Of a DNA stretch of 64,000 bases, positions 2,532-53,091 are shown piece by piece. A model generated the notes under the pieces. The model was not told the origin of the DNA. It worked only from the letters and a program-made list of their open reading frames with translations, and did not search any database. Every line of letters starts with the position of its first letter. The stretch's first letter is position 1. Position numbers and translations under genes: made by a program. This DNA comes from Stegostoma tigrinum. Its lineage: Eukaryota. The DNA lies in assembly GCF_030684315.1 (NCBI RefSeq), contig NC_081379.1, positions 23,280,637-23,344,636 of the forward strand, given 5' to 3'.

Positions 2532-3790
2532 TCCTACACTTCCTACAGGCAAAGGGGTTGGCCATGGGCCCAAGCTATGCCTGCCTCTTTGTAGGATACT
2601 TGGAACAATCCCTCTTCCAAAACTACACTGGCCCTATCCCCCACCTCTTCCTCTGTTACTTCAAAGATCATATAGGTGCTGCCTCGTGCTCCCACGAGGA
2701 GCTCGAACAGTTCATTCACTTCAGCAACACCTTCCACCCCAACCTTAAGTTCATCTGGACCATCTCTGATACCCCTCTGTCCTTCCTGGACCTCTCTGTC
2801 TCCATCTCTGATATCCACCTGGAAATCAATATCCATTTCAAGCCTATCGACTCCCACAGGTACCTTGAATACACCTCCTCTCACTCACCTTCCTACAAAA
2901 AGGCCTTCCCCTACTCCTCATTCCTTCACCTCCGCCACATCTGCTCCCGAGATAAGGCATTCCACTGCAACTTCTCCTCCACAGTGGTTGAGAACACCCT
3001 CAACTGTTTCTCGCATGTCCTGCAGCTCATCCCTCACACCCCCTCCCTGCAATAATAACCAAAACAGAAACCCCCTCGTCCTCACATACCACCCCACCAA
3101 TAACAGTACACTGTATCCACTATTCCCGTTGTGGCCTCCTCTACATTGGGGAAACCAAGCGGAGGTTTGGGGATCGCTTTGTGGAACACCTAAGCACAGT
3201 TCGCAACAAACAACTACACCTCCCAGTCATGAACCATATCAACTCCCCCTCCCACTCCTTGGACGATATGTCCATCCTGGGCCTCCTGCATTGCCACAAT
3301 GATGCCACTGGAAGGCTGCAGGAATAGCATCTCATTTCGCTTAGGAGCCCTGCAGCCCAAGGGTATCAATGTGAACTTCACAAGCTTCAAAATCTCCCCT
3401 CCCCCCGACCACATCATAATACCAGCCCAGCTAGTCCCCACCTCCCTAACCATTCCTCCCACCTCAAGCCCCACCCCCATCTCCTACTCACTAACCTCAT
3501 CCCGCCTCCTTGACCTGTCCTCCCTGGACCGACCTATTTTCCCCCCCTCCCTAACTCCCCACCTACATTCACCTTTCCTGGCTCCAATGCTGCCTCTGAC
3601 CTGTCTCGTTCTGCCTACTTCTCCTTTTATCCATCTTCTATCTGCATCCCCTGCTGTCCCTATTTATTTCAGAATTCCCTTCCCTTCCCCTCCCCCATTT
3701 CTGAAGAAGAGTCTCGAGCTGAAATGTCAGCTTTCCTGCTCCTCTACTGCTAGGCCTGCTGTGTTCATCTAGCTCTACACCGTATTATCT
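2532..3790 (+). mobile_element. Penelope-like retroelement, 5'-truncated and internally deleted
   Basis: RT C-terminus (AMGPSYACLFVGY...FLDLSVSI...SSHSPS), GIY-YIG remnant CGLLYIGETKRRFGDRFVEHL (~3130-3190), pyrimidine-rich tail; 10-bp TSD CAGTTCTGGT at 2522-2531 and 3791-3800. Confidence 0.88.
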
Positions 3791-4129
3791 CAGTTCTGGT
3801 CTCTGTTTGCTTTACTTAAACAGTAGATTGGATTGGTTATTGTAACCATTTGTTTCATTAGTTTGTGGCTTCTGTGGTACAGTGCATTTTCTGTCAGTTT
3901 GCAGTTGAAATATTAATTTGTCATTGTAAAGAACAATTTTGTTTGAACTGTACTGGGATAGAAAGCTTTTTGCTGAAACCTTTCCTTGAATTTCAATGAG
4001 TTGCTGATCTTATCTAATGACCTTGCTCTCCAGACCTGTCTTTTCTATCAAGCAAGATGTCAGCTTCGATTGTTTACCATTAAGATTAGGTGCATTCGGG
4101 ACTCTGTAGACCTATTTTCTGTTAAACAG

Positions 4130-4828
4130 ACCATAAAACATAGGAGCACATGTAGGCTATTTGGCCATTTGAGCCTGTTCTGCTGGTAGTAATATCATGG
4201 CTGATCTGCTAATTTAAAGTCCACTCTCCTGTCTTATCCTGATAACCTTTGATACCCTTACTAATGAAAAAAATTGTCTCATCCTTGAATGTCCTTAACT
4301 CTATGGTAAAGCATTCCACAGATTTGCAAAGCTGAGAAGGGCAGCTTTTCATAATCTCTCTATTTGACGGGTAGTCCCTAACTCTAAGACTACATCCTCA
4401 GGTTCTAGGATTTTCTTAAAAGGAGCAATTAAATAAGATGGGCCTGTACTCATTCAAATTTAGAAGGATGAGAGGAGCCGTTACTAAAATATTTTAGATT
4501 CTTGGGGGAATTGACAAGGTAATACGATGTTTTCCCCTGGGAGAATCTAGGATTAGAGGACGTAATCTTAGAATAAGGGATTGTCCAGTTTAGACAGAGA
4601 TGAGATGAAACCTCTGAGGGGATGAATCTGTGGAATTCTATTTCACAGAGAAGTTAGGAGGCTGGGTTGTTAAGTGCATGCAAGACTGAGATACAGATTT
4701 CTTACTTAGTAAAGAAGTCAGGGGTTATGCAGAAATGACAGGAAAGTGGAGTTGGGGGTAATCAAATTAGCCATGATCTCAGTGGCAGGGCAGACTTGGT
4801 AGTCTGAATGGCTTATGTCTACTTCCTT
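4130..4828. mobile_element. Two oppositely oriented CR1 3' ends
   Basis: ~4130-4415 minus-strand CR1 3' end followed directly by a plus-strand CR1 3' end ~4425-4828. Confidence 0.65.
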
Positions 4829-5283
4829 ATCTCATCCCCTCATAGAATAGGGGATAGTGAGGGACTGGTGTGGCAAATGGGACTGTAGGTGGGAGGCAGT
4901 GAGGAGTCAGGAGCAGGCCAGTGGCAGGAGACAGTGGTGAAGATTTCGTAGCAGGTTGATATCTAGGCAGCGGCAACAGTGGGGAGCAGGGTGGAAGCAG
5001 GAAATGGTGAGATGTTGGTGAGTGGGAGGCAACAAAGGGTTTGGGAGCAGTCGGTGAAGTTGTATCAATCGTATAGTAAACAAGGGCATCCAACTGAAGT
5101 TAGTGGCACCATGAATATAGCTGTTGATGGGTTTCATACTGATTTCCTGTTCCACTTTGGCAGGAAGTAGTGACAGTATTGTGGTAAAGATACTATATAA
5201 GGCTATGTTGCTATTAAAGATTACAGTAAAATTTCGTCCATTTCTGCAAGTGGATACTTGAATTGCTCTTAAAATTTTAACAG

Positions 5284-5436
5284 CCGAAGCCAACAACCAC
5301 ACCAACACCGCCACGTCCTCAAGCCCAACCTAGCCCATCTATTGTGGTCCAGCAGCATCCTCCAACGGTGTACAATCAGCCAATGTGTTATGCACAGAAT
5401 GTGGTATACCCAGTTCCAGTTAGCCCAGGAGTACAG
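5284..5436 (+). CDS. ATXN2: Ataxin-2 internal exon
   Basis: CAG acceptor, GTAAC donor, 153 nt, phase 0/0; PKPTTTPTPPRPQAQPSPSIVVQQHPPTVYNQPMCYAQNVVYPVPVSPGVQ resembles human ATXN2. Confidence 0.96.
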
Positions 5437-5550
5437 GTAACCAGCCTGAAATCTCTCTTTGTGTGGTTTTAAAGCTAAACAGGGTAAATTGTTTATGTAA
5501 TGCTGTCTTGTTTAATAATGGATGGGTATAATGTGATAGGCAACAAATCT

Positions 5551-5917
5551 GAGATAGTAAGAACTGCAGATGCTGCAGCCAGAGACAAGACAGCGTGGAG
5601 CTCGAGGAACACAGCAGGCTGGGCAGCATCAGAGCAGCGGGCAAGTTGACGTTTCGGGTTAGGACCCTTCTTCAGAAATAGGGAGGGGGAAGGTAGCTGA
5701 GAAATAGAGACGGAGAGGAGAGGAAAGTTGGTGCTGGGGAAGGCAGGTAGGATGGTGCCTGCCTTCCTCAGCTCCAACCCTCTACTCTCTCTTTATTTTC
5801 CAGTTCGCTTCTCTCCTCTCATTTCTGAGAAAGGGTCCCAACCCGAAACATCAACTTGCCCGCTGCTCTGATGCTGCCCAGCCTGCTTTGCTTTTTTACT
5901 GCAGTTCCACACTGTAT
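5551..5917. repeat. Fold-back (palindromic) Penelope-terminus element
   Basis: Arms 5614-5660 and 5840-5886 are reverse complements at 46/47 nt; inner GGAAGGCAGG (5738-5747) and CCTGCCTTCC (5758-5767) close a 10-nt loop; arms match the tail of the element at 2532-3790. Confidence 0.85.
5648..5675 (-). ncRNA. Minimal type-I hammerhead ribozyme core within a Penelope terminus
   Basis: Minus strand CUGAAGA-A-GGGU(CCUA)ACCC-GAAA-C-GUC: all core nucleotides, 4-bp stem II, palindromic ACGU stem III; stem I weak. Confidence 0.55.
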
Positions 5918-6102
5918 ACGCAATGATTGCTGTTTTTGCCAGTGATGCTCACATCCTATGAACCATTGAGCTTCATGAATCTACTCCAGAAACAATATTG
6001 ATGCTAACTCTAATGTTTATAACTTCTAAAGTCTTGCTGAGTTGCATAAATTTAATTTTCACTGTCCAGACTAACAACCATTACTGTTTCTTCCAACTCT
6101 AG

Positions 6103-6169
6103 ACTACGCACATGTATCATGTTCCTATGACTCCAATGCCAATCAACCAAGCCAAGTCATATAGAGCAG
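6103..6169 (+). CDS. ATXN2: Ataxin-2 internal exon (alternative donor extends it to 6175, adding GK)
   Basis: TAG acceptor; TTHMYHVPMTPMPINQAKSYRA; tandem donors G|GTAAAG|GTGAG, both phase-compatible with the next exon. Confidence 0.93.
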
Positions 6170-8622
6170 GTAAAGGTGAGAGAATGGGGTTTTGTCTTGT
6201 ATGATGTATGATTTCTTTTTTTATGAGGGATTTATGTAGGATGATATCTTAAGTAGTGTTCAGTGTATCTGTAATTGACATTTCAGTTTTGACTTTGGTA
6301 TCATTTAAAATCACTTTTATTTCTTCCATGTTTTGGAAGTTGGTATGCTAATCAGCAACATGTGCTTTAAGGAATTTAAATTGTCATAATGGTATAAGTC
6401 AGTTAGTTGTCAAGTACATGAAATGATCTTTGAAAAGTCTGATGGAGAAAATATTCCATATGTGGCTCTTTGACAAGGCTGGAGTCTAGCCTATTCTCCC
6501 TCCCACCTGATTTTTGCTATTTATAATCAATTGATTGTAGAGATTCATTGGTGTCCTGCCACTAATGGCGTGGCTGATAATCACTACTGCATATTGTGGA
6601 TATCTTGGTGTTAGTGCAGTTTGTCTGCTGTTAGCAATTTTACAGCAAACGGTCTTCTGAGGAAGAGTGATCATAATACTGTTGAATTTGAAACTTTTGA
6701 AACAGAAGAGTCTGTTTCCATGCTGTATGAATCTATGACTCTATTTGGTATAAGTATGTTCTCTACTATTAGGGGGAATTCCAGAATTTTGACCCAGCAA
6801 CAGTGATAGAACAGGGTAATGTTTCTACGTCAGGTTGGTGAATGGCTGGCAGGGAAATTTGCAGCTGGTGACATTTTTATGCGTCTGCAGCCATGACCTT
6901 TCTAGAGCAGGGCAGAAATGGCTAGCACGAGGGGTCATAGTTTTAAGCTGGTTGGAGGAAAGTATAGAGGGGATGTCAGAGGCGGGTTCTTTACACAGAC
7001 AGTTGTGAGAGCATGGAATGCATTGCCAGCAGCAGTTGTGGAAGCAAGGTCATTGGGGTCATTTAAGAAACTGCTGGACATGCATATGGTCACAGCCGAA
7101 TACAAAGGCTTGAGAAGCATGAATTTTAAAGTCGATTGATAAATTAAATGCAAGCTATAACTGTGCATGTAAAGAAATAATTGAGTAATCTCAATGAACA
7201 TATATTTCTCTGGGGATAAAACTGTAAGGGAATGTGTTCCTACAATGATAAAACGAAGAATTTATAAATAGAATTGGATTAAAAGAGGAACCTCTCAAAT
7301 GTATATTGTGATTTATGGAGAGGAAAATGGACAGCATTCAAGAGGACTTAATGCTGTTAGAATGGGTGGGTATATCACAGATGAGATATACTGTAGTCAT
7401 GTAGAGTAACACATTTTGATAGCGACAAATGCCAATATAAATGAAAGGGTGTAGCTTTAAAGGGGCAGCACAAAGACAGATCTAGAAATATGTATACACA
7501 AATCATTGACGGTGGCAAGCTATGTGTAAAAGTTTTTTTCTATTTTAAAAATAAAAAGACACACGTGATCCTGGGTCTTATAAATATGTGACAAGTGCAA
7601 AAACAAACCTGTTACAATGAACATCTGAGACACTGATATGGTCTCGACTGGAATATTGTGTCCAATTACAGATAATCTACTTTGAAAAGTACCTGAAGAC
7701 TTGAGAATAAAATCAAGATTTATTTGCGTAATGATTCAGGGTTGAAGGACTTTGGTTATGAAGATTGGTAATTTGAAAATAAGAGTGTATCATTCTTAAT
7801 TGCTGATGGTTTAAAACTTCAGATCTATTTTCCAAAGATTGTGCATTTCTTTTATAATTATTACGCATTCGTATCACATGACAGTAACCAGATTTCTGAA
7901 GTTTAGTAAAATTGAAATTCTGTTGAACAGGTTTGATATTTAAATGGGTTTTGATGCACTTGTGCATAAATCACAGTCACGTACTGAAAGGAATTGGGAA
8001 GGGATATGGCACATGCTGTTCTTACAGGGGACTTGCTGCTTAAGAGTAAGGAAGCAATATACTGCTTTTGTGAGACCACACGTCAGGTATTGTGTACTGT
8101 TTTGGACTCCATCCCTAATAGAGGTATATAGCTATCTTAGAGGGAATGTTATAAAGGTGTTCTACATTGATACCAGTGTTGAAAGGGTCAACCTATGAGG
8201 AGAGATGAAGTAGAATGGACTTCTTAACTGAAGTTTAGCTGAATGAGAGCTCATTGAAATTTATAAAATCTTTCAGCGACTTGATTGGTTAAATTCTAAG
8301 TGGCTGTTTCTCCTGTCTTGATCTAGAAAGACAAGCTATAGTTTAAGAGTAATGAATCAGCCATTTAAAATTGAGATGAAAATTTTTTCACCTGTCCTTA
8401 GATGGATATGTGCACCTTGACTTGTTTAGTGTTGAGATAAATGATTTTTTTTACTGATGCTCAGCATGTATCTTTTTTAGAAATGATCCATCCTTATTTA
8501 GCTGATCGTTATGCAATTTAATTGTTTGTGTTGACTGTTAGATTATCATTTGATCTATTTTCCTTACGCGGTTTTTGATTAGATGTTGAAGATCACTGTA
8601 ATCTCATTAATTTTTTTTCCAG

Positions 8623-8810
8623 TACCAACCATGCCGCAACAGCGACCAGATCAGCACCACCCTCAGGGCACACCGACTATAATGCATCCAGTTAGTGCAG
8701 CTGGCCAGATTGTTTCGACTGCTCCAGCTTATTCACAATATGTTACTTATAACCCTCAACAGTTTCCTAACCAACCCCTTGTACAGTCTGTAGCACATTA
8801 TCAATCACAG
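8623..8810 (+). CDS. ATXN2: Ataxin-2 internal exon
   Basis: T-tract + CAG acceptor, GTAAAT donor, 188 nt; (V)PTMPQQRPDQHHPQG...YNPQQFPNQPLVQSVAHYQSQ. Confidence 0.96.
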
Positions 8811-9140
8811 GTAAATTTCCCTCAAAGATACTTTTTGAGTTTAACTTACAATGTTCAAATAGTTCTTTGCTAAACTAGCACTGCAAGTTACAGTTAAATG
8901 CTGCCAGATTTTATTAGACTTGTAATGACTAGAGAACATTGTGTTGCATTTATGTTATAAATTCAATGCATTGTCTATTGATTTGTACTTGCTATGGTAG
9001 TTGATTTCTTGAGATTTACAGTACATCAACTCCATTGTTAAAATATGTAAGCAATACACTGGACACCTGTCCGGTGGAAACATTGTTATTTTATCCTTGT
9101 GCGTAAACTTAATTTTACTGATAATAGTTTCATTCTGCAG

Positions 9141-9270
9141 CCTCAGATGTACAGCCAAGTAATGCAGAGTAATGCTCGAATGATGGCACCACCCGGTCAT
9201 GGGCAACCAGGAATGGTCCCTTCGTCTACAGCACAATTTCCTGCTGCTGAACAGACACATGCTATGTATG
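9141..9270 (+). CDS. ATXN2: Ataxin-2 internal exon
   Basis: CTGCAG acceptor, GTAAGC donor, 130 nt; PQMYSQVMQSNARMMAPPGHGQPGMVPSSTAQFPAAEQTHAMY. Confidence 0.95.
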
Positions 9271-9739
9271 GTAAGCCATCAAGGCAGTTTTTAACTTCTG
9301 GTGTTTATTGGTTAAAATAATAACTGTGCTTGCATTTCTTGGAAAATTTACATCATAGAAGCATGTATAGTATTGTGGAATGTTGGCCTTATCTCAAGAA
9401 GGTGGAAAACAAAAGTGAAAACAGACTTCAGTGTGGGAGTAGGCTATTCATCCCTCAAGGTTTTTCACGCAAGCAAGTGTGAAAGCAAGATTACAGTTGT
9501 GAAAAACCCCAAGTTATACTCTGTCTGGTTTTGAACACCGAACCTCATGAAAGATGTATTGGTTTGTATTGGGGATGCAGCATAGATTGTGGGGAATGAT
9601 ATGGTGTTTAGTAGTGATGATGTTGTTATAGTCCACTTGAGTTCATGTTCGTTGCAAATACTTGTTTTTGCTTCAAGCACAAATGATATAAAACAAGTTT
9701 TTAGCTAATTGTGTTGGCTATAATATGTTTGTAATGAAT

Positions 9740-10420
9740 AAATGATTTATTGTCACTTGTGTTCTATAATGAGCAACATAGTAAAACACAGTGAAAAGCT
9801 TCAACTGTCAACACAATCCATGCTGTTTTGAATAGTTTAAGACTAAAAAGATATCTCTGACTCCAGTATCGGCAGTTCTTACGATCTCTCACTGAAAGAG
9901 TCCATCTTCATTCCATCACCTCTGCCATGTGTCCTGAATCCTGAACAGCTGACCACTAACTCCTGAGCATCCACCCCCTGCACCATACCTGCTGTCAGAA
10001 TCGCCACACTTTGATGTACCATCAATTTGTGGTAGATCCACCTCGCCAACAGGCTACCGATGCCAGGCCCCGTGTTTGGACCCACAGCCTGCAAAAGGGG
10101 GCCCCGGCTCCAGGTCTACCACAGCCAGGAGTTCTTGGCTCTGCTGCAGCCTCACCAATGACCGGGAGCCCTTGGCCTGGGCCTACCACATCTAGAAATC
10201 CCTGGCTGTGCTGCCAGGCCAGGCTGTCACTTTGCCAAGAGTCCTGCTCGTGCTACCCTCCTCTCCAATGTTCTCCTCTCCCACCACCAACAGATAGATG
10301 AAAAAGATGAAGAAAACGAGGACTAAAAGGGTAAAGAAGGAAGGGAGGAAGCATTGTCTGGAGCATACAGGCCCAGAAACCCGAACACTGCCTAACTTGC
10401 TGTAAACGCTATCTCCGGAA
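9740..10420 (-). mobile_element. Probable non-autonomous LINE-tailed element
   Basis: Minus-strand tail AAGCTTTTCACTGTG...GTGACAATAAA resembling Rex1/L2-type 3' ends; GC-rich body with degenerate ~30-nt repeats. Confidence 0.4.
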
Positions 10421-10939
10421 GATTGAATCGCAGTCCTCTGTGAAAAGTCTCTCCCTTTCAGCGTCATTGGTGCAGATAATACTTTTACAACATATGAATC
10501 TTTAGATGCTACTGTGAAGAAGTAATTGTAAATCATGGTTATAATGTACTGAACGCTATATACTGCAAGCACTTCATGATATTGAATACTTTGAATATGT
10601 TTATTACTGAAACAAGAATAATCTGGCTTAGCAGAAAGATTCAGAAATAATGGGTCAGTGTTGAATTTGTTACTACAGCATTAAGTTGCAGTTGTAAAAA
10701 TAAATGGTGTGTACAGAGAAATCTAGTCATGCCCACTTGGACTTGGGTTTTGCAGTACTTTGTAAGCTAAGAGTACGCATATAGTATTTTTTTCTAACTG
10801 TATTCTATTTCTTAGGAAGGTTAGATGCTATGTAAAGGATTCAAGAACGGTCATTGTGCGTGATTCTAGGTTTTTAAACATCTAACTAAAGAGAAATTAT
10901 GAAAACAAAATATGGAAAAATTACATCAAAGGTAAAGAT

Positions 10940-11835
10940 GTAGCCAGGGCCAGCAATCTGGAAATTGTGGATCTGATAAATTTGTGGCTCTGACACAAAA
11001 CATCAGAAGAGCCACAAATGTAAGTGGGAAGAAACTGATCGGTGGAGAAGAAAGGATCAAAATAGCAAGAAACAAGTTCATTGGGACAGGAACAGACTGA
11101 AAATGTCTGCTGGAACAGTCCAGTCAGTGGATTTTGGGAAGAGGGTAAAAGTGTCAGTTTGGGGTCTTTAAGGTTAGAAGTTGTGGATGTCAGTGTCAGT
11201 CCTGGAAATGATAGCTTAGAGTTCAGTGGTGAGGTCATGATCCGAGTGAGATAAAAAGAAAAATCCAAGAAGTGACATTCAGGCTCTGAGGGTTGAGGTT
11301 AGCATGCTTTTTTGGTGTGTGCAGCACTTCTTGTTCCAGTCCTCCTTGGGTGGTCCACCACCTATAACACTCTCTGAAGCAGTGATGATGCCAGCGATGC
11401 TTTGCTTCCTATAGTCATCTTTCTTACTTTCCTGTCCATCTCTCTTCCCTTCTTTGACTTCACTCTTTCCATTTCTGGTCTTGGGTGCTACACTACAGAT
11501 TATCCGACTCCTGCAATTACCTTGATTGCACTTCCTCTCTCACTGCTTCTTGCAAAGGCTGCATTCATTCTCCCAGTTACTGTTTGTGTCACACCTACTT
11601 TGCACCTCACTGTGTCATTTGCTATTATTTAACTCTCATTGTCTTTTCCTCTGGGCACCCTCAGCATCTAGTCTGCTCACTCCCCCTCCCCTTTTGTCAA
11701 CTGCATAGAAAATGTTATTTTCCAGGTGCCTTGAGTTCCAGTGTGGAGTATTTTGACAAAAATGTTAACTGTTTCTCTCTGCAACTGCTGCCCGACCTGG
11801 TGATTTTCTGCAGCGTTTTCTGCTTTTATTTCTAG
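10940..11835. mobile_element. Decayed Penelope element with inverted 5' part, abutting an ATXN2 exon
   Basis: ~10940-11310 minus strand gives the RT remnant SVCSCPNELVSCYFDPFFS...LPTYI; ~11330-11835 plus strand gives downstream RT remnants and the family tail. Confidence 0.6.
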
Positions 11836-11984
11836 TGTCTCCAGGCCCAATTCATCAGCAGTTTGCACCCCACCCAACTGCTACCCTACATCCACATGCT
11901 CCACACCCACAGCCATCTGCAACCCCAACTGGACAGCAACAAGGGCAGCATGGTGGCAGTCATCCAGCACAGAGCCCAGTCCAG
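11836..11984 (+). CDS. ATXN2: Ataxin-2 internal exon
   Basis: TTTATTTCTAG acceptor, GTAAGG donor, 149 nt; (V)SPGPIHQQFAPHPTATLHPHAPHPQPSATPTGQQQGQHGGSHPAQSPVQ. Confidence 0.95.
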
Positions 11985-15300: not shown

Positions 15301-15483
15301 AAAAGGAATATTTTAAATTTTCTATGCATCAACAATGCCAGTGCTTTTAACACAGCACACTGTCAATTAGTGCAACCAATAAAGTTTTTGGCACAGTTTT
15401 GGAAATTATTTGTATAAGCTGCTGTCAGTTACCATTACTTATTTAGTAGAAATAATGACCTTTTGGCTGCTTTTTGTTTGTAG

Positions 15484-25680: not shown

Positions 25681-28600
25681 CTTTGGAAACAAAACAAAAA
25701 TGTGAATCTTAAAACAACTTCTGTCAAACCTTAAATTTAAACTGATTTAACTTTCTGCTGAGTAATTTTGTGGCTACTATGCAAATACAGCAAGTACATC
25801 ACATTCAAAGCATTTTAGTAATTAGGCAGGTAAATTTCAATCCTCATATTTAACTACCCATCTGCTCCTTAATATTTAATAGTCTCGCCACTCCCTAAAA
25901 CTGTTTAACGTTTTAACGTACAATGATCAGTATTTTCTAATAACATTAGTCAGACATTTTATGAAATGTCACAGTCCCAAACATGTGAACCAAATATGCT
26001 TCAATCCAGTATTTTACATGCACACAGATGATGAACACAATGAAGAAACAGCTTTCTAAGACTTTCACAATTTGATTTCAAATACCAGGAACTAATTTCA
26101 AATACATATTTCAGTAAGTGAATTTTCAAATTTCAATCGCAGAAAACATAGACAAGAATGTGACAACAAGGTGTGGAACTGGATGAACACAGCAGGCCAG
26201 GCAGCAGAGAAGCAGGAATCCTGACGTTTCAGGTTCATTAGATAGTCATAGCCCGCAGGAGAAATGCAGATAAGTAACAATTCCCATGTCTTACATATTA
26301 CACGAGTGAGAATTGTCAATAATAGAATTTTATACTGTTCTTTACAAATAGACGTGCAACACAAATCCTGTTCAGCAAGTTTCTGATGAGATCATTTCCT
26401 CCTGTGGAGAAACCGACTTTATGATAGCGACAATCTGGCAGGAAATGGGGACAAGAAACCTAATAAAATTTATACCAAAATGGTAATTTCCTGGAATCTT
26501 ACATGTTCTTTGCCCGCAAGTCTGCCTTTAGCCATATCTTCAGTTTCAAGAATCTGTCATCACAAGTGGAGACAACAAATTGATAACAGGCAGAAATTAG
26601 TGAAGCTCAAAATATGAGGTATCCCTACAAAATACTCCAGAAATAAATCAGGATGGTGCTAAACCCAGAATTATTTTATCCATTATAATGCGTTATTTCA
26701 GAAAGATTAGAACAAACTATTTTTCTTCTCATTCTTCATTTCACTTCCAGATTCTCCTTCGCATGAATTTATAGGTCATCTTGTTTTAAATTTGGAGTGC
26801 TGCCTTTGTGCTAACGAAGTGCTAAATATATTTAATGGGTTTGTTTTTCACACAAATTGTTTCCTCTCTGACCTACTGTTAGTTTTTCTCCATCTTTGAT
26901 CTTATTCCAACAAACATCATAGAATCAAGGAATATCCTCCAAGAATCCTTAGATTATAGAAAGTGCTGAGGGATTGGAAAGCTGCTCACGTAACGAAAAG
27001 CAAGTTGAAAAGAGGCAACTATGGGCCAGTTATCTTAACATCTGTCATTGGGAAAATGTTATAGTCCAGTAGAAAGGATGTGACAGCAGAACATTTAGAA
27101 ATGTATCATGTAAACGAACAAATTCAGCAGGACTTCATGAAAGGAAACCATGCCTTTCGGAGTAACAAACAGGATCGATAAAGTGAAAGCTGTAGGTGCA
27201 ATATTTTTGGATTTCCAAGGCTACTTAATAGGAGCCCACGGTACACACGGTCGTAAAATAACTTGGAGAGAAGATCGGCAAACTAATAGAAAGAGAGATT
27301 GGATAAGGGAATTTGTGGACAGTTGCAGAGGCTGAGATTCTGCAAACACTAACCTGGGCCCCTATGCCTGACTTACTGGCAGTCACACACCCTGGAACCT
27401 GATCACAGATAAAATCTAAATTTGAATTACAGAGTGTGAATGTGCTTGCCTCCTCAAGCAAAGTGGTCAGGTAGCTTTCCACCTGCCCAATGTGGCACAA
27501 TGCCTGTCGCTCCTCAACTCAAATCAGAAGCTCCTCAAGCTGCAAACATTTATGGCTGATCTGTTTGTGTTTGCCTTGGATTACCAGCAGCAACACATCA
27601 CCCATCCTGCCATCACCATCATATTTAATTTAATTTATTAATTACTCTAGAATTGCTGTCTTTTATTGAAATTATTACTTTTAAAATAAGTACCAGTATC
27701 AATACTAGTACAATACCACCACAGTGATGACCTTAGTAGTACTTCTTTGGTTGTAAAGCTTGTTGAGATGTTGGGTTGTCATGAAAGGCACTACACATAA
27801 ATGCAAATCTTTCTTTGCTTTTTCCCCAAATAGTCGTTGGTGGCACTTTCCTTGGACTTCGGTAGACTTTGTAGCAATTGTATTCCTTGAGGTGACCAAA
27901 ACTCTCTTGCAGACATTGCTTGTTTTATTGACAAATAAATTTACAACTTCCTTCTAACATTTTATATCCCTAACAGAATTGTGGATCTACTTACAGCACT
28001 TAGACTGCAGTGGCTCAAGAAAGTAGCTTCCTCTATCTTCCCAAGGCAAGTAGGGACAGGCAATAATTGCCAGCCAAGCCAGTGACACCCACATGCCACG
28101 AGTAAACAAAAACTATTTCTAAGACAGAAGAAAAAGACTGCAGATCTAAACAGAAACTAAAAACTTTCCATTTACTTTAAGAACTAGCAACGTTCAACAA
28201 ACCTATTCAACAAACAGCTGCTTTCCCTGGTTCATAACATCCCTTTGCCAGGAGGCCTCTCAATCTGCACCTTTTCTTCACTTCTGCTCACACCTTGCTC
28301 TTAAGTTTTTGTTTGTTACAGTAAACCTTACATTAAGCACCTGTATCACTCTCTGTACTAAACTTCACTTTGAACCAAGTTCCCAAATATACTCATTCAG
28401 GCAAAGTCTCCACTCATGCTGACCTTGTGCATACCCTCTAGTTACCAACAGGTCTGTCAGTGCCAGAGGTCAAGAATACCAGACCATGCTGGATTGCCAA
28501 AAGATGTCACCACATGGCAATAACACCATCACAGACACCCTATCCATAAGCCCACATCCCACTTGGCCTGGAGTGGGGAAAACAACAGGGATACTCTCTG

Positions 28601-38150: not shown

Positions 38151-38748
38151 GAACTCTAATAGTTTCTGTTACTTTTCTGAGTCAGTTGCTTTACATATTG
38201 GAGTAATTTTCACGACTAAGGGAGTTGGTTTTCCTGGTATCAGCCAGCTGAACTAACATCATCGGACATTTCCATTAATCCAGATGAACTCGCCATTTCA
38301 CCCCTGTACTCTCCCCTTATAGATAGTCTCAAATGTCCCTTTTTCCAGAAGCACTCACTGTGTCAAACAAAAATAACAAATTCAAATAAAAATCAAACAG
38401 AAGTCAAACAGCATTTTGTGTTACCTCTTGGTATAGGAAATTAAGGGAACATTTATGTTGTCCAAACTCATTACCAGTAAGCATTTCCTACTTCTGAATT
38501 CTGACTCCCCAAATTCATATATCCCCAGGCCACAGGCTGACCCTTGTGGATACCTAGGGACAATGGATCAAATGCAGATAAATGAAGTTCAAATGCATCA
38601 GGCATGATCTAAGAGACTGGTGGGAAAGGACAAGAAGGTGAATGACTTCAGAGATAATGGGAACTCAGATGCTGGAGAATCTGAGATAACAAAGTGTGGA
38701 GCTGGATGAGCACAGCAGGCCAAGCAGCATCTCAGGAGCACAAAAGCT

Positions 38749-38776
38749 GACATTTCGGGCCTAGGCCCTTCATCAG
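38749..38776 (-). ncRNA. Minimal hammerhead ribozyme core within a Penelope terminus (element ~38650-38780)
   Basis: Minus strand CUGAUGA-A-GGGC(CUAG)GCCC-GAAA-U-GUC; a second copy at 39051-39078 reads CUGAAGA-A-GGGU(CUAC)GCCU-GAAA-C-AUC. Confidence 0.5.
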
Positions 38777-40529
38777 AAAATGCCTTGTTCTTATGTTTTG
38801 AGGATCAAGCCTGTAACACTACCATCAATCAAATGCCCATTTTCTTCATCATCTGGATGCAAGTTCAAACTTGAAAGCATATTCACAGTATGAGCATGAA
38901 TGCAAAGAACTGGCTTCCAATTCTCAGCTGCAACTGGAATGTACCTTATAAGAAGTAAAATTACTAAAACAAGTGTCTAAACAGAAGATAACAAGGTGTG
39001 GAGCTGGATGAACACAGCAGGCCAAGCAGTATCTAAGGAGCACAAAAGCTGATGTTTCAGGCGTAGACCCTTCTTCAGAAAAGTAGAAGAACTGCTGGAG
39101 CTACAATCCACATGAGGAGAGGAAAATTAATCCCTAATGTTAACCTACTTATTGTTCTCTTTGCAAATGTTGAGGGACTTATTTGTAGTTCCATTTTTAA
39201 CATGTGTAAGCACAGTGCTCCTGCTTGAGTATTTTATTAAGGTGACAACTGAAAATAATTCACTTATGTTTCAAACATCCTCACTTTTTCCTGCTTTAAA
39301 CTTTGTTAATATAAAGCAATTGTAATGAATTGTACTCAGCTCTTGGGGACTCAGGTATGAGATGCTCTGGCTGCCTTTGGGGAGGTACGTTGCCTGGTGA
39401 GCTTGTAACAATGGCTGGGAGTCAAAGTCTTGATGGTGAATCTGGGGGACACTCATGCATGCAGAACTAATAATGATCCAGAGTACAGGACAGATAGTGT
39501 CCCAGATGCAGACAATCCAGGGCACATGACAACCAGCTCATATAGTTAGTCCCCTAACTGTAACAGAACAGAAAGTGAACTCACTTATTTGCAAAGGTAC
39601 AGCCATTTAAACACTTTCAAGTCTGAATTGTCTAAGAACAGCTCATGCATTAGTATTGTATTGTTCACAGCAAACAATGCACCTGAAGGAGTGCTAAGAT
39701 GGATCCATGAGCTCAATATTTTCACAAAAGTCAAAGCTTTCTCTTAAAGCATCACAATTTTTTAAAAAAAAAGTGTTTTTCTGTCTGATGTTATTTTCTT
39801 AAGTGCAACTTAGCATTTTCTACTTGTTGCACTGTCATTCTAATTATAAACTTACTTTAGTTTCGTCTCTATTCCTAACCATCCGGCAACGCTGGCTCAG
39901 AGCTCAGTTCTGCATTTTTAAAAAAAAATTATTCTGTTGTTCATCGACATCCAGTGTACATATTTGTAACAGGATGGATTTTCTTTCACATTTTAGTGAG
40001 TGTATCCATTTGCTTTAATCCAGCCATGAGTAAAACAAACAGTGCTCCCATACTAGTAGTCAATTTCGATCTCTTATTTCTAAAATAATTAGATTTATCT
40101 TTTAAAAAATTGTTTTCAAAAATTCTGACTTGGTTAGTAAAATATACAATTAGAAGAGACACTTAATTTCCTAAAGCTTATAGTTTATGAAAGGTCAAGA
40201 GTTGGAATACAAGCAGCTCTCAGTCTAACGTTTACTCTCCCCAAGAGGCCTTTTCCATTATATTATTTCTTTCGGCTCGGGGAAAGAGGTGGTCAGGACT
40301 GGGGACTTCTCCAGTATCCCAGGCAGCAACATTCACTGTCCCCCGAATAGGGACGAAGCTTGCTTGCATAGGGTGAGCCGAATAGCCAGATTTAATTCAG
40401 GAACAGATGGAAAGTATTACCATAAAAAAGTACACTGTTAAAGCTTAGTTTGAAGATGACAGATTTCATCCCGAATGCAGCAGGATTTGAGCATTTGGAC
40501 ATAAAAGTTGCAGGTCCATTTACGGAATC

Positions 40530-41330: not shown

Positions 41331-41519
41331 TCTAAGCAGGAAGCCGTTTGCAAATCGCTTGATTTAGCTTGTGTTATCTTGTTCATGTGCTGAATCAAAA
41401 TATTTCTAAGGACTGTGATAAGGTATTCAACATCATTGATAGTACTTTGCACATCACCTTATCATCCCTTCAGTTTCTGTATTCAATGGATTATCCTGCA
41501 ATATTTCTGTCAGCTCCAG

Positions 41520-41950
41520 AATGTTGCAATCACTAAGTGTACCTTCCAATGCCCTTTCTTTTCAGCATTCTGGAAGGAACCTGCTGTCCACTCCTCAGTC
41601 CTAACACTGAATCTGTCCTCTGTGGCACCTTTCCATGCAAGCACGGGGGACACAATATCCGCACACAAACTTTATTTCTTATTACAACCATTGCTACTGT
41701 CTTTGGATTTTGCCATATGAAATGTTTCATTAGTGGAGTCCTACCCTCTACCCTATCACCAGTTGTGCTTGCACACCCCTCTCCTCCCCTTCTACTGATT
41801 TTAAGAGGTTTATAGTTGTATCTTTCTTCAGTTCTGATGAAAGGTCATTGACCTGAAATATGAACTCTACTTCGACTCACATTTGCCAAGTATTTCCAGT
41901 ACGTTTGTTTTTAATTCAGATCTCCAGCATCAGCTATGTTTTGCTTTTGT
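41520..41950 (+). mobile_element. Decayed Penelope 3' end
   Basis: Family tail with hammerhead-like AGTT-CTGATGA-A-AGGTC(ATT)GACCT-GAAA-TATG-AACT at 41830-41866. Confidence 0.6.
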
Positions 41951-45657: not shown

Positions 45658-45904
45658 GTGATGCAATGTCACATGATCCTGCTCTGTCTTGATTTGCCAC
45701 AAGGTTGCACGACACAGTAAGATGTTTCTTCAATAAAGTAATGTTTTCCTTACCTGACCAGACACAGTAAATACTGTTTAGCAGCACAAGGAGATCATAA
45801 ACATTATACATTTAAGGATGTGCCCCCCCCCCCACCTTTCATCATTAATGAAAGGAATAGTTTCAATATCATTAAATTTTCTTTAATCCTCTCACTCTTG
45901 ACCA

Positions 45905-47080
45905 CTATGGATTCGAAAGCTGCAATCCAGAAAGTTGCAGGCCTGTGAGACACACGTTGGTGGTAGGGAAATTACTGGGAAAAATTCTCAGGGACAAGAT
46001 CTGTACATATTTAGAAACAAATGGACTTATTAGCAATAGACAGCATGGTTTGGGTGGGAAAGGTCAGGGCTCACTAACTTGATTGAGTTTTTTGAAGGGG
46101 TGACAAAGATGTTTAGGGGAAAAGCGATTGATGTTGTCTGTATGGACTTCAGTAAAGCCTTCAACAAGGTCCCTTGTGGCAGACTGGTACAAAAGGTGAA
46201 GTCACATGGTCCACAACAATAAAAACAGAAGTTGCTGGAAAAGCTCAGCTGGTCGGGCAGCATCTGTAAAAAGAAAGCAGGGTTCTGAGGAAGGGTCACC
46301 AGACCCAAAACGTTAACCCTGATTTCTATTCACAGATGCTGCCAGACCTGCTGAGCTTTTCCAGCAACTTCTGTTTTTGTTTCTGACTTACAGCACCTGC
46401 AATTCTTTCAGTTTTTATGAAGTCACATGGTATCAGGGGTGAGCTGGCAAGATGGATACAGAACAGGCTTAGTCATAGGAGACAAATGGTAGCATTGGAA
46501 AGATACTTTACAAAATGGAGGATTGTGAAAGGTGGTGTTCCACAGAATTCAGTGTTGGGACCTCTGCAGTTAGTTGTCTACATAAATGATTTGGAGGAAA
46601 ACATGGCTAGCCTAATGAGTAAGTCTGTGGATGATACAAAGATTAGAGGAGTTATTAATAGTGAGGAGGACTGTCAGAGGATACAGCAGGATACAGGTCA
46701 GTTGGAGGCATGATCAGAAAACGGCAGATGGAGTTTAATCTAGACAAATCTGAGGTAATACATTTTGGAAGGTCAAGTACAAGTGATCTGGGTGTGTGGG
46801 TCCACAGATCACTGAAAGTGGCACCACAGGTAGATAAGGTAGCTAAGGGTGGTGGTTTCAAAGAGACGTGCGAGGCAATTTCTCCACACAAAGGAATGCG
46901 CCGCAAGAAGAGGTGGTGCAAGCAGATACAATAGCAGCACTCAAGAATTACCTGGATCAGTACATGAATGGAAAGGGAATAGAGGGATATGGAACATTTA
47001 AGTGAAGACAGTTTCAGTATGGAAGGGCAAAATGTATTGGCACAGGCTGGGAGGGCCTGTACCTGTGCTGTATTGTTCTT
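45905..47080 (+). mobile_element. CR1 LINE ORF2 fragment interrupted by the palindromic element
   Basis: DFSKAFNKVP...KSHGIRGELARWIQN...GVPQNSVLGP continues across the insertion. Confidence 0.88.
46211..46417 (+). mobile_element. 207-bp palindromic Penelope-derived non-autonomous element nested in a CR1
   Basis: 14-bp TSD TGAAGTCACATGGT at 46197-46210 and 46418-46431; long inverted arms flank a hammerhead-like core at 46285-46314. Confidence 0.85.
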
Positions 47081-47993
47081 TGTTCTTTTAGTAACACAGA
47101 ACATGCTAACGTATGATTAGAAAATTGATTATTTCAGATAAGGAGGAAGAAACAAATAATGTCAACTCCATTAATTTAATGTTAGACATGAGAAAGTCAC
47201 TGGAATCTACCTAATGGTACTGAGCAACTGAGTAACTAGGAAAATCCAAGATGCTCAAAGTCATCATAAATTTGTGAGAACCAGTCCAGTTTGTCATAAA
47301 GGAATCTACATTGGACTTCTAGCTTGGAACAATGAATGGAGTTGTTATTAGCATTTCTACCCTCATTCACTCCTTTTGATGTTTTAGTGCTATCCTTAGA
47401 AAATATCCAGAGATATATATTTGTGATGATGTCCAACTCTTCTCTCCTGCTTCCACACAAATTCCCACTCTTATATCTTTCCCATTCTCAATGACTTCCT
47501 TATTCCCAGGTTCTCCCATTCAAAAAGTACAGAGTCAACACTCTCATTCATAAATAAATCACACGATATTTCTTCTCTCCTTTGCATCATCTACATTTTC
47601 AGCCCTTTAATCCTCTAATTCTGGCTCTTCCGTATGTCTACGGTTACTGTCCACAATCAACTTCAGAGTTTTCAATGATCATTCCCCTTCTCCACAACCC
47701 CTTTCAATTTGCACTTTCTTGCATATTTAAGAATGTGTGCGCTGATCCTTTGAACAATGCTCTTCATCATCTCACCTAATGCTTCTCACTGCTCAGCTTC
47801 TGGTTTTCCTTTGTCAAGGATCTTGTGAAACTTTCTATATCAAAGGCACTGAATAAATGCAATTGTTATCCATTCTCATCCTTTATCTATCCTTTCAACC
47901 ATTAACATGATATCAAAAATGCATCCATCTTTGCTCAATTTAAAATCAGAACACTTTATTAAAGGTAAAGTTCTACAGATGCATTTTCATTAC

Positions 47994-48208
47994 CTTGGCT
48001 CTCCCTTGATAGTTGAATGTTAGGACATACTCTCCTCGCTGGGTTTCACTCTGACGCACAAGAAACACGCCATGACCCTCAGTTCCTGGAATCTGTACCA
48101 GCTGCGCTGCTTTAAATCGAGAGATTGGACCATGAAACCAGGCATAGGATGAGAACAGCCGGTCCGTCTTTTGGTAGGGCTGTTCTGTTGAGCAATGATG
48201 GGCAGCTC
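47994..48208 (-). CDS. SH2B3: SH2B3 exon, N-terminal half of the SH2 domain
   Basis: CAG/GTAAT boundaries, 215 nt; ...[51 protein letters not shown], with WFHG and FLVR motifs. Confidence 0.97.
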
Positions 48209-49009
48209 CTGAAACACAATTAAAAAGACAACAATTGTATCATTTTTGCAGAATATTAACACATCAGGGAGAGAATGGGGGAGAGGAATTATTTTTGAAT
48301 ATTTTAGTAAATAAGTCAGATAATGTGAGCAAGACTGAATTTCCCATTTTTAAAGGTAAATCTACTAAACAGGATAAATTTTCAGTTCACTTAGATTTTA
48401 TTTGCTATAATCAATTTACTTAGTGGACTAACTTGTACCAAACATTCAATTTCTTTTAAGGAAAAATCTTTGAAATAATTCTGGTGCAATGACACCTGGA
48501 AAACCACAATTTCTTAGAGAATGGTTGAGTTCATGTTTAATTGACTTGCTGGATCCTCTCAAAGATACTGTAACTGTGGTGAATAGGAAGAATGGAATTG
48601 GTATATTGTACCAAGAGTATCCACAAGGTTTCAACAAGATTCCACTTTAAAGTAGTGTCACAGAACTATAAATAAACAAACTGTCAAATTGTTTGGCTAA
48701 AAACAGACAGGAGAAAAGAGTTATGAAATTAGAACTTAGAAGGCTACATAGAGGAGATAACCAAAGCACTGTATTCCATACCCTTTCTTTTTTAATGTCT
48801 TGCTGACCTTACATTAAACATAATCTCCATGTTTGCTGTCAGGTTGCCAAAAGATGAAGCAGCAGAGGGAGCAGTATTACTAATACCAGATTTCTGGATT
48901 TCTGGTATGTTAGGTTATACTTGACTTCTTTGGTAAAGAGACATTGCAGTGATTATGAAAGGAATTAGCAAAAGCCAAACTGGTCAAGTTAAACATTACA
49001 ACAAATCAA

Positions 49010-49376
49010 GTCCACCTCCTTTACCTGACATAACCTGTCCATCTTCTTCCCCACCTATCTGACCTGTCCCCTACCTGCATCCAATCTATCACCATCCCAC
49101 CTACCTTTCCCCAGCCCCACCCATCCTCCCTCTCACCACCCTGACCTGACACAACTTGTCTGTCTTCCCTCCCACCTATCCAACCCACCGATCCCACTGA
49201 CCAATCTCCACCATCCCATACCTGCATTCACCTACCACCATTCCACCTACCTTTCCCCAGCACCATCCCCACTCTCTCTATTTATTACCCAGCTCCCTTC
49301 GCACCCCCCTTTTCTGAAGAAGGGTCCTGACCCAAAACGTCAACTTTCTTGCTCTTCTGATGCTGCATGACCTGCT
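49010..49376 (+). mobile_element. Penelope 3' pyrimidine-rich region and terminus
   Basis: Internally duplicated C/T-rich ~50-mer, then CTGAAGAAGGGTCCTGACCCAAAACGTCAAC and TGATGCTGC as in other copies. Confidence 0.7.
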
Positions 49377-49792
49377 CAAGACTGTGGTCAACAAAGAAAA
49401 GTCAGTAAACACTTTGATGTAAGATTGTCCCAGCTTACTCAATAGCTACGGCATCAACCATTATACTTCCAATGATATTTAAATGCAACCATGATTGCTG
49501 AAGTACTAATGCTTTCTACCATTACCCTTTATAAAGTTTTTCAAATTGACAACTGCTTCTGTGTAAGCCTAAATATTTTTAGACAAAGCAATTGATTAAG
49601 TGGAGAACTTGGCATTATGAGCCATAAGTCATAGTAGCAGGAGATGACCATTTGGTGAAGCAAACTTTTTCTACTATTCTAAAAGATCCTGGCTGATTAA
49701 ATGTGGCTTTAATTCCACTTGCCTGCTTATGCTCATAACCTTTCACTCCTTTGTACATACAAGCCTGTCTAACTTGCCTTGAATGCAAAAGA

Positions 49793-50070
49793 CACAGTGC
49801 TCAGTGGTTAGCCAGGGACCTAGATTCGATTCCACCCTTGGGAGACTGTCTGTGTGGAGTTTGTACATTCTCCACGTGCCTGCGTGGGTTTCCTCCCACA
49901 GTCACAAAGACGTGCAGGCTAGGTGGATTGGCCATGCTAAATTGCCTGTAGTGTTCAGAGACGTGTAGATTAGGTGGGTTCCCTGGTGACGGGTCTGGGG
50001 GGGATGCTGTGAGGGTCAGTGTGGAATTTTGGGCCAGAAGGATTATTTCCATGCTGTCGGGATTCTATGA
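49793..50070 (+). mobile_element. HE1-type tRNA-derived V-SINE nested in a CR1 3' end
   Basis: tRNA-like head (CTCAGTGGTTAGC...TTCGATTCC), V-domain TGTGTGGAGTTTG...TGCGTGGGTTTCCTCCCACAGTC; minus-strand CR1 resumes on both sides. Confidence 0.85.
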
Positions 50071-50919
50071 CTGTCTATGAATATTCAAGATCCAGCCTCT
50101 GCAGATCTCTGTGGAAGGGTAGTTAAAAGACTAATAACCCTCAAAGGAAATCTTAACTCCATCTAAAATGGAAGATCCTTTCTTTTCAGACATTGCCCCT
50201 AGTTCTAGATTTCTTCAGAAGAGGAAATATCCTCTCAGCATCTACCTTATTAAGTCCCACCAGAAACTTATATGTTTCAATTAAATCAACTCTCATACTT
50301 CTAAATTCCAACGAGCAAAGGTCCAATCTACTTAACCATGTCTGGAATTTTTGGTGCAGTTTTGGAGTGCATTCAAAAGCTTCACTTACACTGGAGGAAA
50401 GAAAACAAAGGTTTCCTAGATTAGTCCCTGGGACCAAAGGCATGTGCGTAAATTTGGCCGGTATCTCTGAAATTAAGAAGAATCAGTGACAACAAGATTC
50501 TGAAGGAATATGTAAGGGTGGCTGCTGAGAGACTGTCTCCACTGGTTGAGGAATCTAAAATGGGAGACAGTCTCGCGAAAAGTGGCTGATTATGTAAAAC
50601 CATGAAGAAAAGAAATTACTTCACTCTGAAGGTTAGTGGCTCGATGCAATTCTCTACCCCAGAGGGTTGTGAATGCTCCATTAATAAATAACTAAGTTTG
50701 GAACAGACAGATCATTGGTCTCTCAAAAGGGAGTGTGTGGGGAATATGGATTTCAAGCCAGAAATGCAATATGACCATAATGAATAGTGCAATTGGTTTG
50801 AGGCCAATGATCTCCTTTTCCTATTCCATGTGTTTTTTTTGTCCCTCATATGACAACTCAATCAACCTTGGAATTATACTGGTAAACAATATTCAAATTA
50901 TTTTCACTGAAAATATATT

Positions 50920-52560
50920 CTTCCTTAAGTAAGGAGCTCAAAATGGTACACTGTAATCCAGATGTTTAATTGCAGCAAGACTTCTCTATTTATACATTCC
51001 ATTCCCCTTTGAATAAAGGCCAACATTCCATTTTCATTCCTAATTATTTGCTGTATGTGCTTGCTATCTTTTTGTGACTCTTGGACAAAGTCCCCAGATC
51101 CTCTGTATCACAGCATTCTACAGTATATATATATCTCTCTCTCTGTTACACAATAATTTGCTTTTCCAATCTTGCTGCCAAATTGGACCAACACATATTT
51201 TCCCCACATTATACTAGATCTGCCAATCATTTGTATATTCATTTAACCAATCTATATCTTTTTTGCATCCTCATCACATCTTGCTTTCCTGTCTAACTTT
51301 GCTTCATAAACAAATTTGACTATAGTACAGTCAAACCTTTCATCCAAGTTATTACTGTAGAATGGAAATATCTGAGATTTCATCACTGCAATATTCCACG
51401 AGTTAAGATTTGCCAACTTCAGTACGATGCATTTCTCCACGCTGTTTCCTGCTAGTTAGCCGAACCTCTACCCATGTTAATATATCAACCCTAACACCAC
51501 AAGGTTTTATCTTGTGCAGTAATCTTTAACTGGTATCTTATAAAGCCTCTTTTGAAATTCCACATATGTTACTTCTACTGTTTTCTTTTTATCTATCCTG
51601 TTTGTTGCATTCTTGAAGGACTAATAAATTTGAGAAACACAATTTCCCTTTCACAAAAATGCAATGTTACATTTTTATGGTTGTCCAGTTAGCAGGGTCA
51701 ATACCAGAATCCAGTAAACTCTGGAAGATTAAAAGTAAATGTACCAACTAACTCTGCAGCCACCTCTTTCAAGACTTAGCGTGCAGGTCACCGGATCTGG
51801 GGTATTTGTCAACCATAATCCGATTTAGTTTTCTTAGTACCTTTGTGATCATGACCATTTCAAGTTCCTCCCTAACTTCTGCTCCCTGATTTTCTACTGT
51901 TCTTTGGATGTATTTTGTATCACTTACTGTGAAGATGGATGCAAAACACTTTTTTAATATCTCTGCCATTTCCATTTTTCTCCACTATTAATTCTTCAGT
52001 GTCAACCTATAAGAAATAAATGCTCACTTCTACTACTCTTTTATATACCTATAGAAGTTTGACTTCCATTGTTATGCTTACTTTTGCTCTCATACTCTGT
52101 TACTCCTTTTCCCCCCCCCAAAGTTATCCTTTGGTGGTTTCTAGAACTTTGCTGATCTTCTTACCTATTACTATTTTTTGCAGCATTACTATCTTTTCTT
52201 TCAAGTTGATACCATTTCCCTAGTTTGTCACAGACAGGGCACCTTGTCAAAGTCTTCTCAGTGAAATAGATCATTGTCAAAACCTATGAACTATCCCTTC
52301 AAATAGCTGCCACTACTTCACCATTTTATCTTTTAATCATTTTTTTACATTCCATTTTAATCAAATCTGTCTTCATAAAAACAAATGAAAGCAATTTATC
52401 AAAGAGTAAGACACCAATGTCACACCAATATTTCTCATCTTCAAACTGAATATGAAATTCTACAATGTTACACTTACTCCTGTCAAGTGGAACCTTTACA
52501 ATAAGGTGATTAATTTATCTTGTCTCATACACATTACCAGCTCTGAAAAACCTAGGTGGT
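50920..52560 (-). mobile_element. Old CR1 LINE remnant
   Basis: MAEILKKCFASIFT (ORF 51769-51975) and other degenerate CR1 ORF2 motifs. Confidence 0.7.
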
Positions 52561-52962
52561 TCTAGAAAGTATTGTTCTAAAAAAAGCTGTCCTGAATACA
52601 CACACTACAAACCCATATGCAAGTTATCTTTACCAATTTGATTCACCCAAACTCAATAAAGGTTAAACTCTTCACAGTACCTTACAAAACTCCATTTTGC
52701 TTGATATATACCACAGGGCATATATTATCAGAGCACCTATAAACCATTCCCAGTAACACTTCCCTTGCTATTTCTTTATTCAAATTGATCTACGTTATAT
52801 CCTCTGCAGCATGATCAATTTTGATTACTGTACCAATGTCTAACCGAGATTTCCTAAAGGTCAACTGCAGAGTTATCTTCCATTGCTGAGAAATTTCTCA
52901 ATTGAATCAAATCATGGCCCTTACGTCAAATCAAAATTTTGAAAAACCAAGGTAGAATCAAG

Positions 52963-53091
52963 GGTCACTGGACCTGAAACGTTAACTCTGTTTTTTCCTT
53001 CACAGATGCTGCCAGATCTGCTGAGCTTTTCCAGCAACTTTGTTTTTGTTCCTGATTTACAGCATCCGCAGTTCTTCGGTTTTTATTCTGT
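52963..53091 (+). mobile_element. Short Penelope-terminus insertion
   Basis: Same family as 46211-46417, right arm only; 11-bp TSD GTAGAATCAAG at 52952-52962 and 53092-53102. Confidence 0.8.

Follow-up and report, generated by a model that had tools for sequence, protein, structure and literature searches.

Minimal hammerhead ribozyme motifs at the 3' ends of Penelope-like elements in a 64,000-nucleotide stretch of zebra shark DNA

Minimal hammerhead ribozymes (min-HHRs) have been known in Penelope-like elements (PLEs) since 2014, when Xena, Poseidon and Neptune elements from fishes, coelacanth and Xenopus were reported to carry them (PMC4209133, Cervera and De la Pena 2014). PLE insertions show inverted arms, palindromic junctions, tails, solo pseudo-long terminal repeats (pLTRs) and target site duplications (TSDs) of 8-10 bp (PMC8557442, PMC3846280). 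The role of PLE hammerheads is not yet settled (PMC8557442, PMC11167929); in an anole PLE, mutating the ribozyme left insertion unimpaired, and the cleavage site had no RNA ends mapping to it (PMC11167929). A preprint (10.64898/2026.07.22.740005) derives non-LTR retrozymes (LTR, long terminal repeat) from pLTRs, reports them in one chondrichthyan, and gives Neptune and Poseidon as the vertebrate PLE groups. We analyzed a stretch of 64,000 nucleotides from the zebra shark Stegostoma tigrinum (contig NC_081379.1; below, 'the window'), in which an original prediction had placed a dispersed family of PLE termini carrying min-HHRs. We conclude that these sequences are very probably the dead, 5'-truncated 3' ends of two endonuclease-bearing PLE lineages (likely of the Neptune clade), each carrying a min-HHR motif predicted to process the RNA of its active parent element.

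We evaluated the motifs against chance using both a loose pattern and a structural descriptor. The pattern CUGANGA..GAAA matched the window 18 times, with 7.5 matches expected, whereas the descriptor (the core, a stem II of at least 4 bp and the UH site) gave three perfect matches and seven with at most one core mismatch, compared with 0.03 and 0.5 in 30 shuffles, which reached at most 1 and 2; at two mismatches it returned chance level (14 versus 9.6, shuffle maximum 14). The copy at 3701 was missed because its stem II is broken. Profile searches added three pieces (1619-1738 and 26135-26240 on the minus strand, 11757-11833 on the plus strand), for a total of 12; the nhmmer profile that matched 26135-26240 was trained on the window copies, and 1619-1738 lay outside this training set. 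Together with one inverted tail arm, the pieces cover about 3.7 kb (rough bounds), or 5.8% of the window. An Rfam search of the window at E<=1 returned no hammerhead match, and a motif pattern scan of viral contigs returned 0 matches. All eight cores on which the original prediction was built, and the truncated copy that it placed near 52961, lie where it had put them, and its identification of minimal type-I hammerheads at Penelope termini is borne out by the core, the terminus and the link to open reading frames (ORFs) described below.

The 12 pieces divide into two lineages, and do not form the single family that had been proposed. Lineage A (3701, 5675, 5825, 26240, 38776, 39078 and 49314) has UUU 5' of the core, and its GUC leads into AGC or AAC (AGG at 26240, a truncated copy); lineage B (41834, 46285, 52963, 11757 and 1738), whose members are mutually only loosely related, has AGUU or GGUU ahead of the core where this part is present and AACU or AACC past the cleavage site. 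CUGANGA, GAAA and UH are the majority form among eight copies, three of which are free of core mismatch (all three on the minus strand). An extra nucleotide that separates position 9 from 10.1 is A in all eight full copies, just as had been predicted, and the 10.1-11.1 pair is G-C in five of them, G-U in two and A-U in one. The palindromic positions 15.2-16.2 read CG in three of the eight, and the remaining five deviate solely by C>T or G>A. Such changes account for every one of the altered CpG letters (11/32), compared with a single change among 80 non-CpG core letters, so that the predicted decay at CpG sites is upheld. In stem II, 87.5% of cells are paired, with two-sided change at two of the five pairs (one sequence apiece); the whole-structure count was reached by 4/500 shuffles, a test that the relatedness of the copies inflates. 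Compensatory change in helix II is thus present, though weak.

Stem I is 2 bp long in all six full lineage-A copies (U-rich, with U-A and U-G pairs), 4 bp in the 41834 copy and 7 bp in the 46285 copy, where the inverted arm lengthens it. Cofolding of three copies did not give a hammerhead dimer as the minimum-energy form, the 46285 copy excepted in part, a result that is uninformative given the short helix III. Core, stem and palindrome are intact together in just one of the eight full copies (5648-5675, minus strand), and the other seven are broken in at least one of these. Several of the altered positions matter for catalysis: changes at H17, G12 and G8 block hammerhead cleavage, G12 being the general base (PMC6155905) and G8C the documented change at G8 (PMC11167929). 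At position 3710, related contigs read G in 85-98% of depth. Within lineage A, non-CpG core letters differ at 1/60 compared with 33/198 in the tail (p 0.002; the six copies include the two arms of a single insertion), and this conservation of the core above the tail fits selection in the parent elements followed by neutral decay.

The element at 2532-3790 connects the motif to PLE coding sequence, the 3701 motif being its own 3' end. It matches the Rhincodon PLE protein P0001 at 64% (tblastn, E 1e-70), and its reverse transcriptase (RT) piece matches 18 of 143 candidate proteins, led by elasmobranch PLE proteins at 55-75% identity. The relatives of this element carry Pfam RVT_1 and GIY-YIG domains, and P0001 has both together with a CX4CxxC linker; the window's own GIY-YIG piece reaches a Pfam E value of 0.24 only. 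A linker of the form CX2-5CxxC, which marks Neptune and Nematis elements (PMC8557442), is present in P0001, P0005, P0007, P0008, P0010, P0012, P0013 and P0015 and deleted in the window copy, and we regard the Neptune clade of endonuclease-bearing (EN+) PLEs as the likely assignment. The window copy has lost the N-terminal half of the RT, reads YFKD where P0001 has YIDD, and jumps from P0001 residue 259 to 355 (about 95 linker codons deleted), so that, judged by its sequence, it is catalytically dead. Its 5' junction is crossed by 35-37 letters in contigs of X1, X5 and X15, which carry three species labels, indicating an old fixed insertion. Mobilization of the other copies by the RT and GIY-YIG of this very element, as originally proposed, is not supported, in view of its truncation, its YFKD, its missing linker, its age and its possession of the 3701 motif as its own terminus.

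Coding sequence also adjoins other copies. ORF remnants lie upstream of three of the 12 pieces (3701; 41834, tblastn E 1.7e-5; 11757, E 7.8e-4). P0002, an ORF-bearing zebra shark PLE, reads on across its 3' untranslated region (UTR) to LMKGLRPKRQLLCS at its end, where the short copy at 38776 has LMKGLGPKCQLLCS in translation; the tail variant of the short copies therefore has an ORF-bearing counterpart. A weak PLE RT remnant at 10996-11193 (minus strand, E 2e-4) is oriented opposite to the 11426 remnant and is possibly an inverted part of that insertion.

The ends of the insertions (Table 1) are those of retroelements that were variably truncated. Their 5' ends correspond to reference positions 2532, about 3354, 3631, 3647, 3698 (twice) and points inside stem II (twice), that is, to at least six different ends. 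Perfect TSDs flank three of them: 10 bp for 2532-3790 (2522-2531 and 3791-3800), 14 bp for 46211-46417 (46197-46210 and 46418-46431) and 11 bp for 52963-53091 (52952-52962 and 53092-53102); among 200 random intervals a score of 10 was reached by two and a score of 11 by none, and for nine of the 12 intervals the TSD search found nothing above the random range. Two insertions (5548-5890 and 46211-46417) have inverted arms. In the former, 55-70 nt of UTR-like sequence lies ahead of each core; weak Rfam miRNA-like matches (E<=1) on 5714-5788 were rejected, this region being the inverted junction, that is, the joint of two PLE arms. In the latter, the arm matches 46315 onward at 61/67 and begins at the first base past the predicted cleavage site, so that the join is one of stem-I microhomology; the arm makes a long hairpin with the ribozyme core as its loop (z -3.3), and this hairpin likely arose by fold-back at stem I. 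We found no tandem ribozyme units in the window, and its three short tandem arrays are all without the motif.

Repeat depth was assessed by aligning contigs to 2400-3900 at 80% likeness (89,721 of them from run X1). Summed X1 depth, which is no copy number, is about 20 in the flanks, 3e4-4e6 in the ORF bins and 4e5-3e6 at the terminus, in keeping with the high copy number that had been claimed; ORF bins and terminus are both highly repeated, which is not what a terminus-only family predicts. The 3' ends of X1 contigs cluster at 3790-3793, and some continue into the tail. Among the matches listed, 477 X1 contigs have unrelated, low-agreement A-rich letters ahead of 3698, the position at which the short copies 38776 and 39078 (90% alike, both with an altered palindrome) also start; local alignments stop as well where the UTRs of subfamilies diverge, which bears on these 3698 starts.

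Table 1. PLE-derived features of the window (positions are those of the whole stretch)
Feature	Position	Strand	Details
Decayed lineage-B-like terminus	1619..1738	-	nhmmer E 5.9e-14
5'-truncated, internally deleted lineage-A PLE	2532..3790	+	Remnants of RT/thumb (about 2532-3052) and GIY-YIG (about 3103-3435), pyrimidine-rich 3' UTR, min-HHR, downstream terminus
min-HHR core, broken stem II, C15.2>U	3701..3728	+	End of the 2532-3790 element
Head-to-head inverted pair of lineage-A termini	5548..5890	.	Junction about 5747/5758; pairwise arm alignment, self-BLAST
Sole intact copy	5648..5675	-	Core, 4-bp stem II, ACGU palindrome, GUC site; 2-bp stem I; antisense relative to ataxin-2
min-HHR core, G8>A and G16.2>A	5825..5852	+	
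Heavily decayed lineage-B PLE end	11426..11833	+	ORF remnant E 7.8e-4; terminus 11757-11833
Lineage-A terminus cut off inside stem II	26135..26240	-	nhmmer; self-BLAST 81% to 3719-3811
Short lineage-A copy, start 2-3 nt ahead of core, full tail	38645..38778	-	Core 38749-38776, C15.2>U
Short lineage-A copy, start about 3 nt ahead of core	38986..39081	-	Core 39051-39078, C11.1>U, G16.2>A
Lineage-B PLE end	41421..41945	+	ORF remnant 41421-41630, UTR, core 41834-41862 with 4-bp stem I and G in the cleavage position, tail
Lineage-B insertion inside a LINE (long interspersed nuclear element) remnant	46211..46417	+	Inverted tail arm 46218-46284, core 46285-46314 (G12>A), tail
Lineage-A end, about 300 nt UTR	49010..49385	+	Core 49314-49341 (G12>A); alignment to the 2532-3790 element extends back to about 3354
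Lineage-B terminus cut off inside stem II	52963..53091	+	Perfect 11-bp TSD

The full copies span both sides of the cleavage site, and the template must therefore have been uncut or re-ligated RNA. By analogy with the anole PLE in vitro (PMC11167929), the PLE protein would nick AT-rich DNA and begin reverse transcription 60-110 nt downstream of the ribozyme, within the tail; synthesis would then pass the cleavage site and the core, usually ending early and leaving solo ends, and fold-back or self-priming would add an inverted arm (at 46285, via the stem-I microhomology). Two ribozymes of one tandem transcript in the parent element, or a single one with help from protein, would be able to form stem III through the ACGU palindrome and would cut after GUC or GUU. 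Dispersed copies would be unable to cleave alone and would decay neutrally.

The same core occurs in 55 metagenome loci (chosen for an intact core), 11 of which have a PLE protein match; blastn at 1e-5 matches none of the loci to the window, so they stem from other animals and are used for comparison only. Their stem I has at least 3 bp in 12 of 30 distinct flank pairs, compared with 4.0 in shuffles (maximum 11, n=2000), and covaries between families (GCU/AGC, UGU/ACA, CUU/AAG, AGU/ACU and CCU/AGG), and 11 of the 30 flank pairs are without any stem I pair. An inverted arm is joined within 19 nt of the core in 16 of 52 hits (about 11 after deduplication), a proportion to be read with the fact that selection by pattern favors joins near the core.

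These data bear on several other explanations. Chance motif matches or assembly artefacts could be suspected from the yield expected of the loose pattern and from the Rfam result, but the excess of structured matches, the shared tails, the TSDs and the bridging of the 2532 junction in contigs of three species labels refute this explanation, to which we assign practically no weight. It is also improbable that we are seeing a discrete, non-autonomous element of 95-135 nt (ribozyme plus tail; a solo-pLTR short interspersed nuclear element [SINE] or a retrozyme monomer) that amplifies on its own RNA and borrows the PLE protein, even though the two short copies share their start, the 477 contigs change character ahead of the same position, and pLTR-derived retrozymes have been described in a chondrichthyan. 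A SINE-like family would have a fixed 5' end and no coding sequence; the window copies have at least six 5' ends, reaching 55, 70, about 350 and 1170 nt upstream or beginning inside stem II, and three of the 12 adjoin ORF remnants. In addition, the tail variant of the short copies ends an ORF-bearing zebra shark PLE, the ORF bins are as deep as the terminus, and the window lacks tandem ribozyme units. The separate non-autonomous family of the original prediction is not supported by these observations. A further alternative, compatible with PLE origin and concerned with function only, is that the lineage-A motif is a vestige or a protein-binding hairpin that is no longer a ribozyme. The uniform 2-bp stem I of lineage A and the behavior of the anole mutants favor it, whereas the better preservation of the lineage-A core than of its tail, and the existence of published min-HHRs with a 2-bp helix I (though of G-C pairs; PMC4209133 supplement), speak for a ribozyme, and we consider the loss of function unlikely.

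Truncated ends of two PLE lineages remain our preferred reading, and several observations weigh against it. None of the six full lineage-A copies folds into a hammerhead shape, and because of this and of the 2-bp, U-rich stem I, the lineage-A ribozyme may have little or no activity, even in the parent. The anole element inserts without need of cleavage (PMC11167929). The covariation of stem II, which comes from two single-sequence changes, is weak. Nine of the 12 pieces have no ORF match, and no intact parent element or tandem pLTR was found among the window copies, in a search that was not genome-wide. Our clade call draws on the linker seen in relatives and not on an RT tree, and the likely choice of Neptune over Nematis is based on the vertebrate host. 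Finally, two window copies and the 477 X1 contigs start 3 nt ahead of the core, which is more regular than random truncation predicts. This regularity raises the doubtful idea that the 5' edge of the ribozyme is a true boundary of the copied RNA, with shark PLEs shedding a discrete ribozyme-plus-tail unit of 95-135 nt and stem I serving as the fold-back point for arms. Such a unit would come about either by internal priming in the 5' pLTR, with synthesis running off where the RNA starts, or by propagating itself as a mini-retroelement. If this were true, thousands of junctions would map the start of the PLE transcript and show uncut RNA to be the template in vivo.

The first 16 kb of the window belong to ataxin-2, with plus-strand exons between 1803 and about 15960 (gene end near 16.5 kb), a PAM2 motif at 1804 and an exon at 5284-5436 that matches ataxin-2 of Rhincodon and Stegostoma at 100% identity. 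Within its introns, the sense copies at 3701, 5825 and 11757 (plus strand) are broken and the sole intact copy at 5675 (minus strand) is antisense; these numbers are too small for a test of selection acting against cleavage within introns. A strand bias (3/3 mismatch-free cores on the minus strand) was considered and set aside, since 24 non-LINE reading frames past the end of ataxin-2 have no Pfam match and the transcribed strand beyond about 16.5 kb is not given by such frames. Outside ataxin-2, a large share of the window consists of LINE-like repeat remnants. One of these, at 53119-54726 (plus strand), derives from a LINE RT, presumably of the CR1 type; it keeps 285 aa of open frame (Pfam RVT_1, E 6e-24) and has many kin pieces throughout the window.

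One PLE remnant appears to have been drawn into the host gene. The decayed lineage-B end reaches 11833, directly ahead of the splice acceptor (AG) for ataxin-2's coding exon at 11836, and the pyrimidine tract (and likely the branch point) of this acceptor is therefore PLE-derived. Alignment of this end to the 46285 copy scores 67, compared with 14-21 for eight other ataxin-2 acceptors, and this level was reached by 1/400 random window pieces. The acceptor may thus be a small case of a retroelement tail used as a splice signal; our literature search on PLE exaptation at splice sites returned only general reviews and surveys of transposable elements.

The extension of PLE hammerheads to shark PLE lineages is by itself of little consequence. 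Related PLE pieces number many thousands per shark genome, however, and this high copy number makes two questions computable: whether copies start at the ribozyme edge, and whether the core is lost faster in sense intronic copies. In the shark and elasmobranch literature (titles and abstract openings) we found no account of PLE hammerheads, and the terms shark, Callorhinchus, milii and skate have no match in two supplementary files of PMC4209133.

Compared with EN+ PLEs (PMC8557442, PMC3846280), the window elements agree in the order of RT and C-terminal GIY-YIG, in the CX2-5CxxC linker of their close relatives, and in 5' truncation, an inverted 5'-truncated arm, an optional tail, solo pLTRs and short TSDs; they differ in that the window copy is without the linker and the N-terminal half (Craig et al. 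2021; Arkhipova et al. 2013). The Anolis Poseidon element PAc (Frangieh et al. 2024, PMC11167929) likewise has its ribozyme upstream of the tail in which reverse transcription starts, and inserts from uncleaved RNA at AT-rich targets, as in the model suggested for the shark; PAc belongs to a different clade, and its mechanism is carried over to the shark elements by analogy. Non-LTR retrozymes (10.64898/2026.07.22.740005) share type-I hammerheads, derivation from pLTRs and dispersed monomers, but they are defined by tandem ribozyme units; because the window has none, its elements, several of which join PLE coding sequence, are not non-LTR retrozymes. The closest likeness is to the min-HHRs of PLEs (PMC4209133). 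At 41815-41833, a pyrimidine run with a CAG end lies just inside the 5' strand of stem I of the lineage-B copy, a layout that at the level of sequence resembles D. virilis Penelope, where an intron ends at helix I (PMC4209133). Shared with the published class are the CUGANGA-H core, the extra nucleotide between 9 and 10.1, the G10.1-C11.1 pair, GAAA, the UH site and a palindromic CG in place of helix III, as well as mostly single dispersed copies from truncated PLEs and opposite-strand pairs (100-700 bp apart in that class); the shark host and the short helix II (4-5 bp) of the window copies are unlike the published cases, and lineage A, with 2 bp of U-A/U-G, has a weaker helix I than the published cases with 2 bp of G-C (PMC4209133 supplement). 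By all tested features of sequence save this helix I, the window motifs are members of the PLE min-HHR class.

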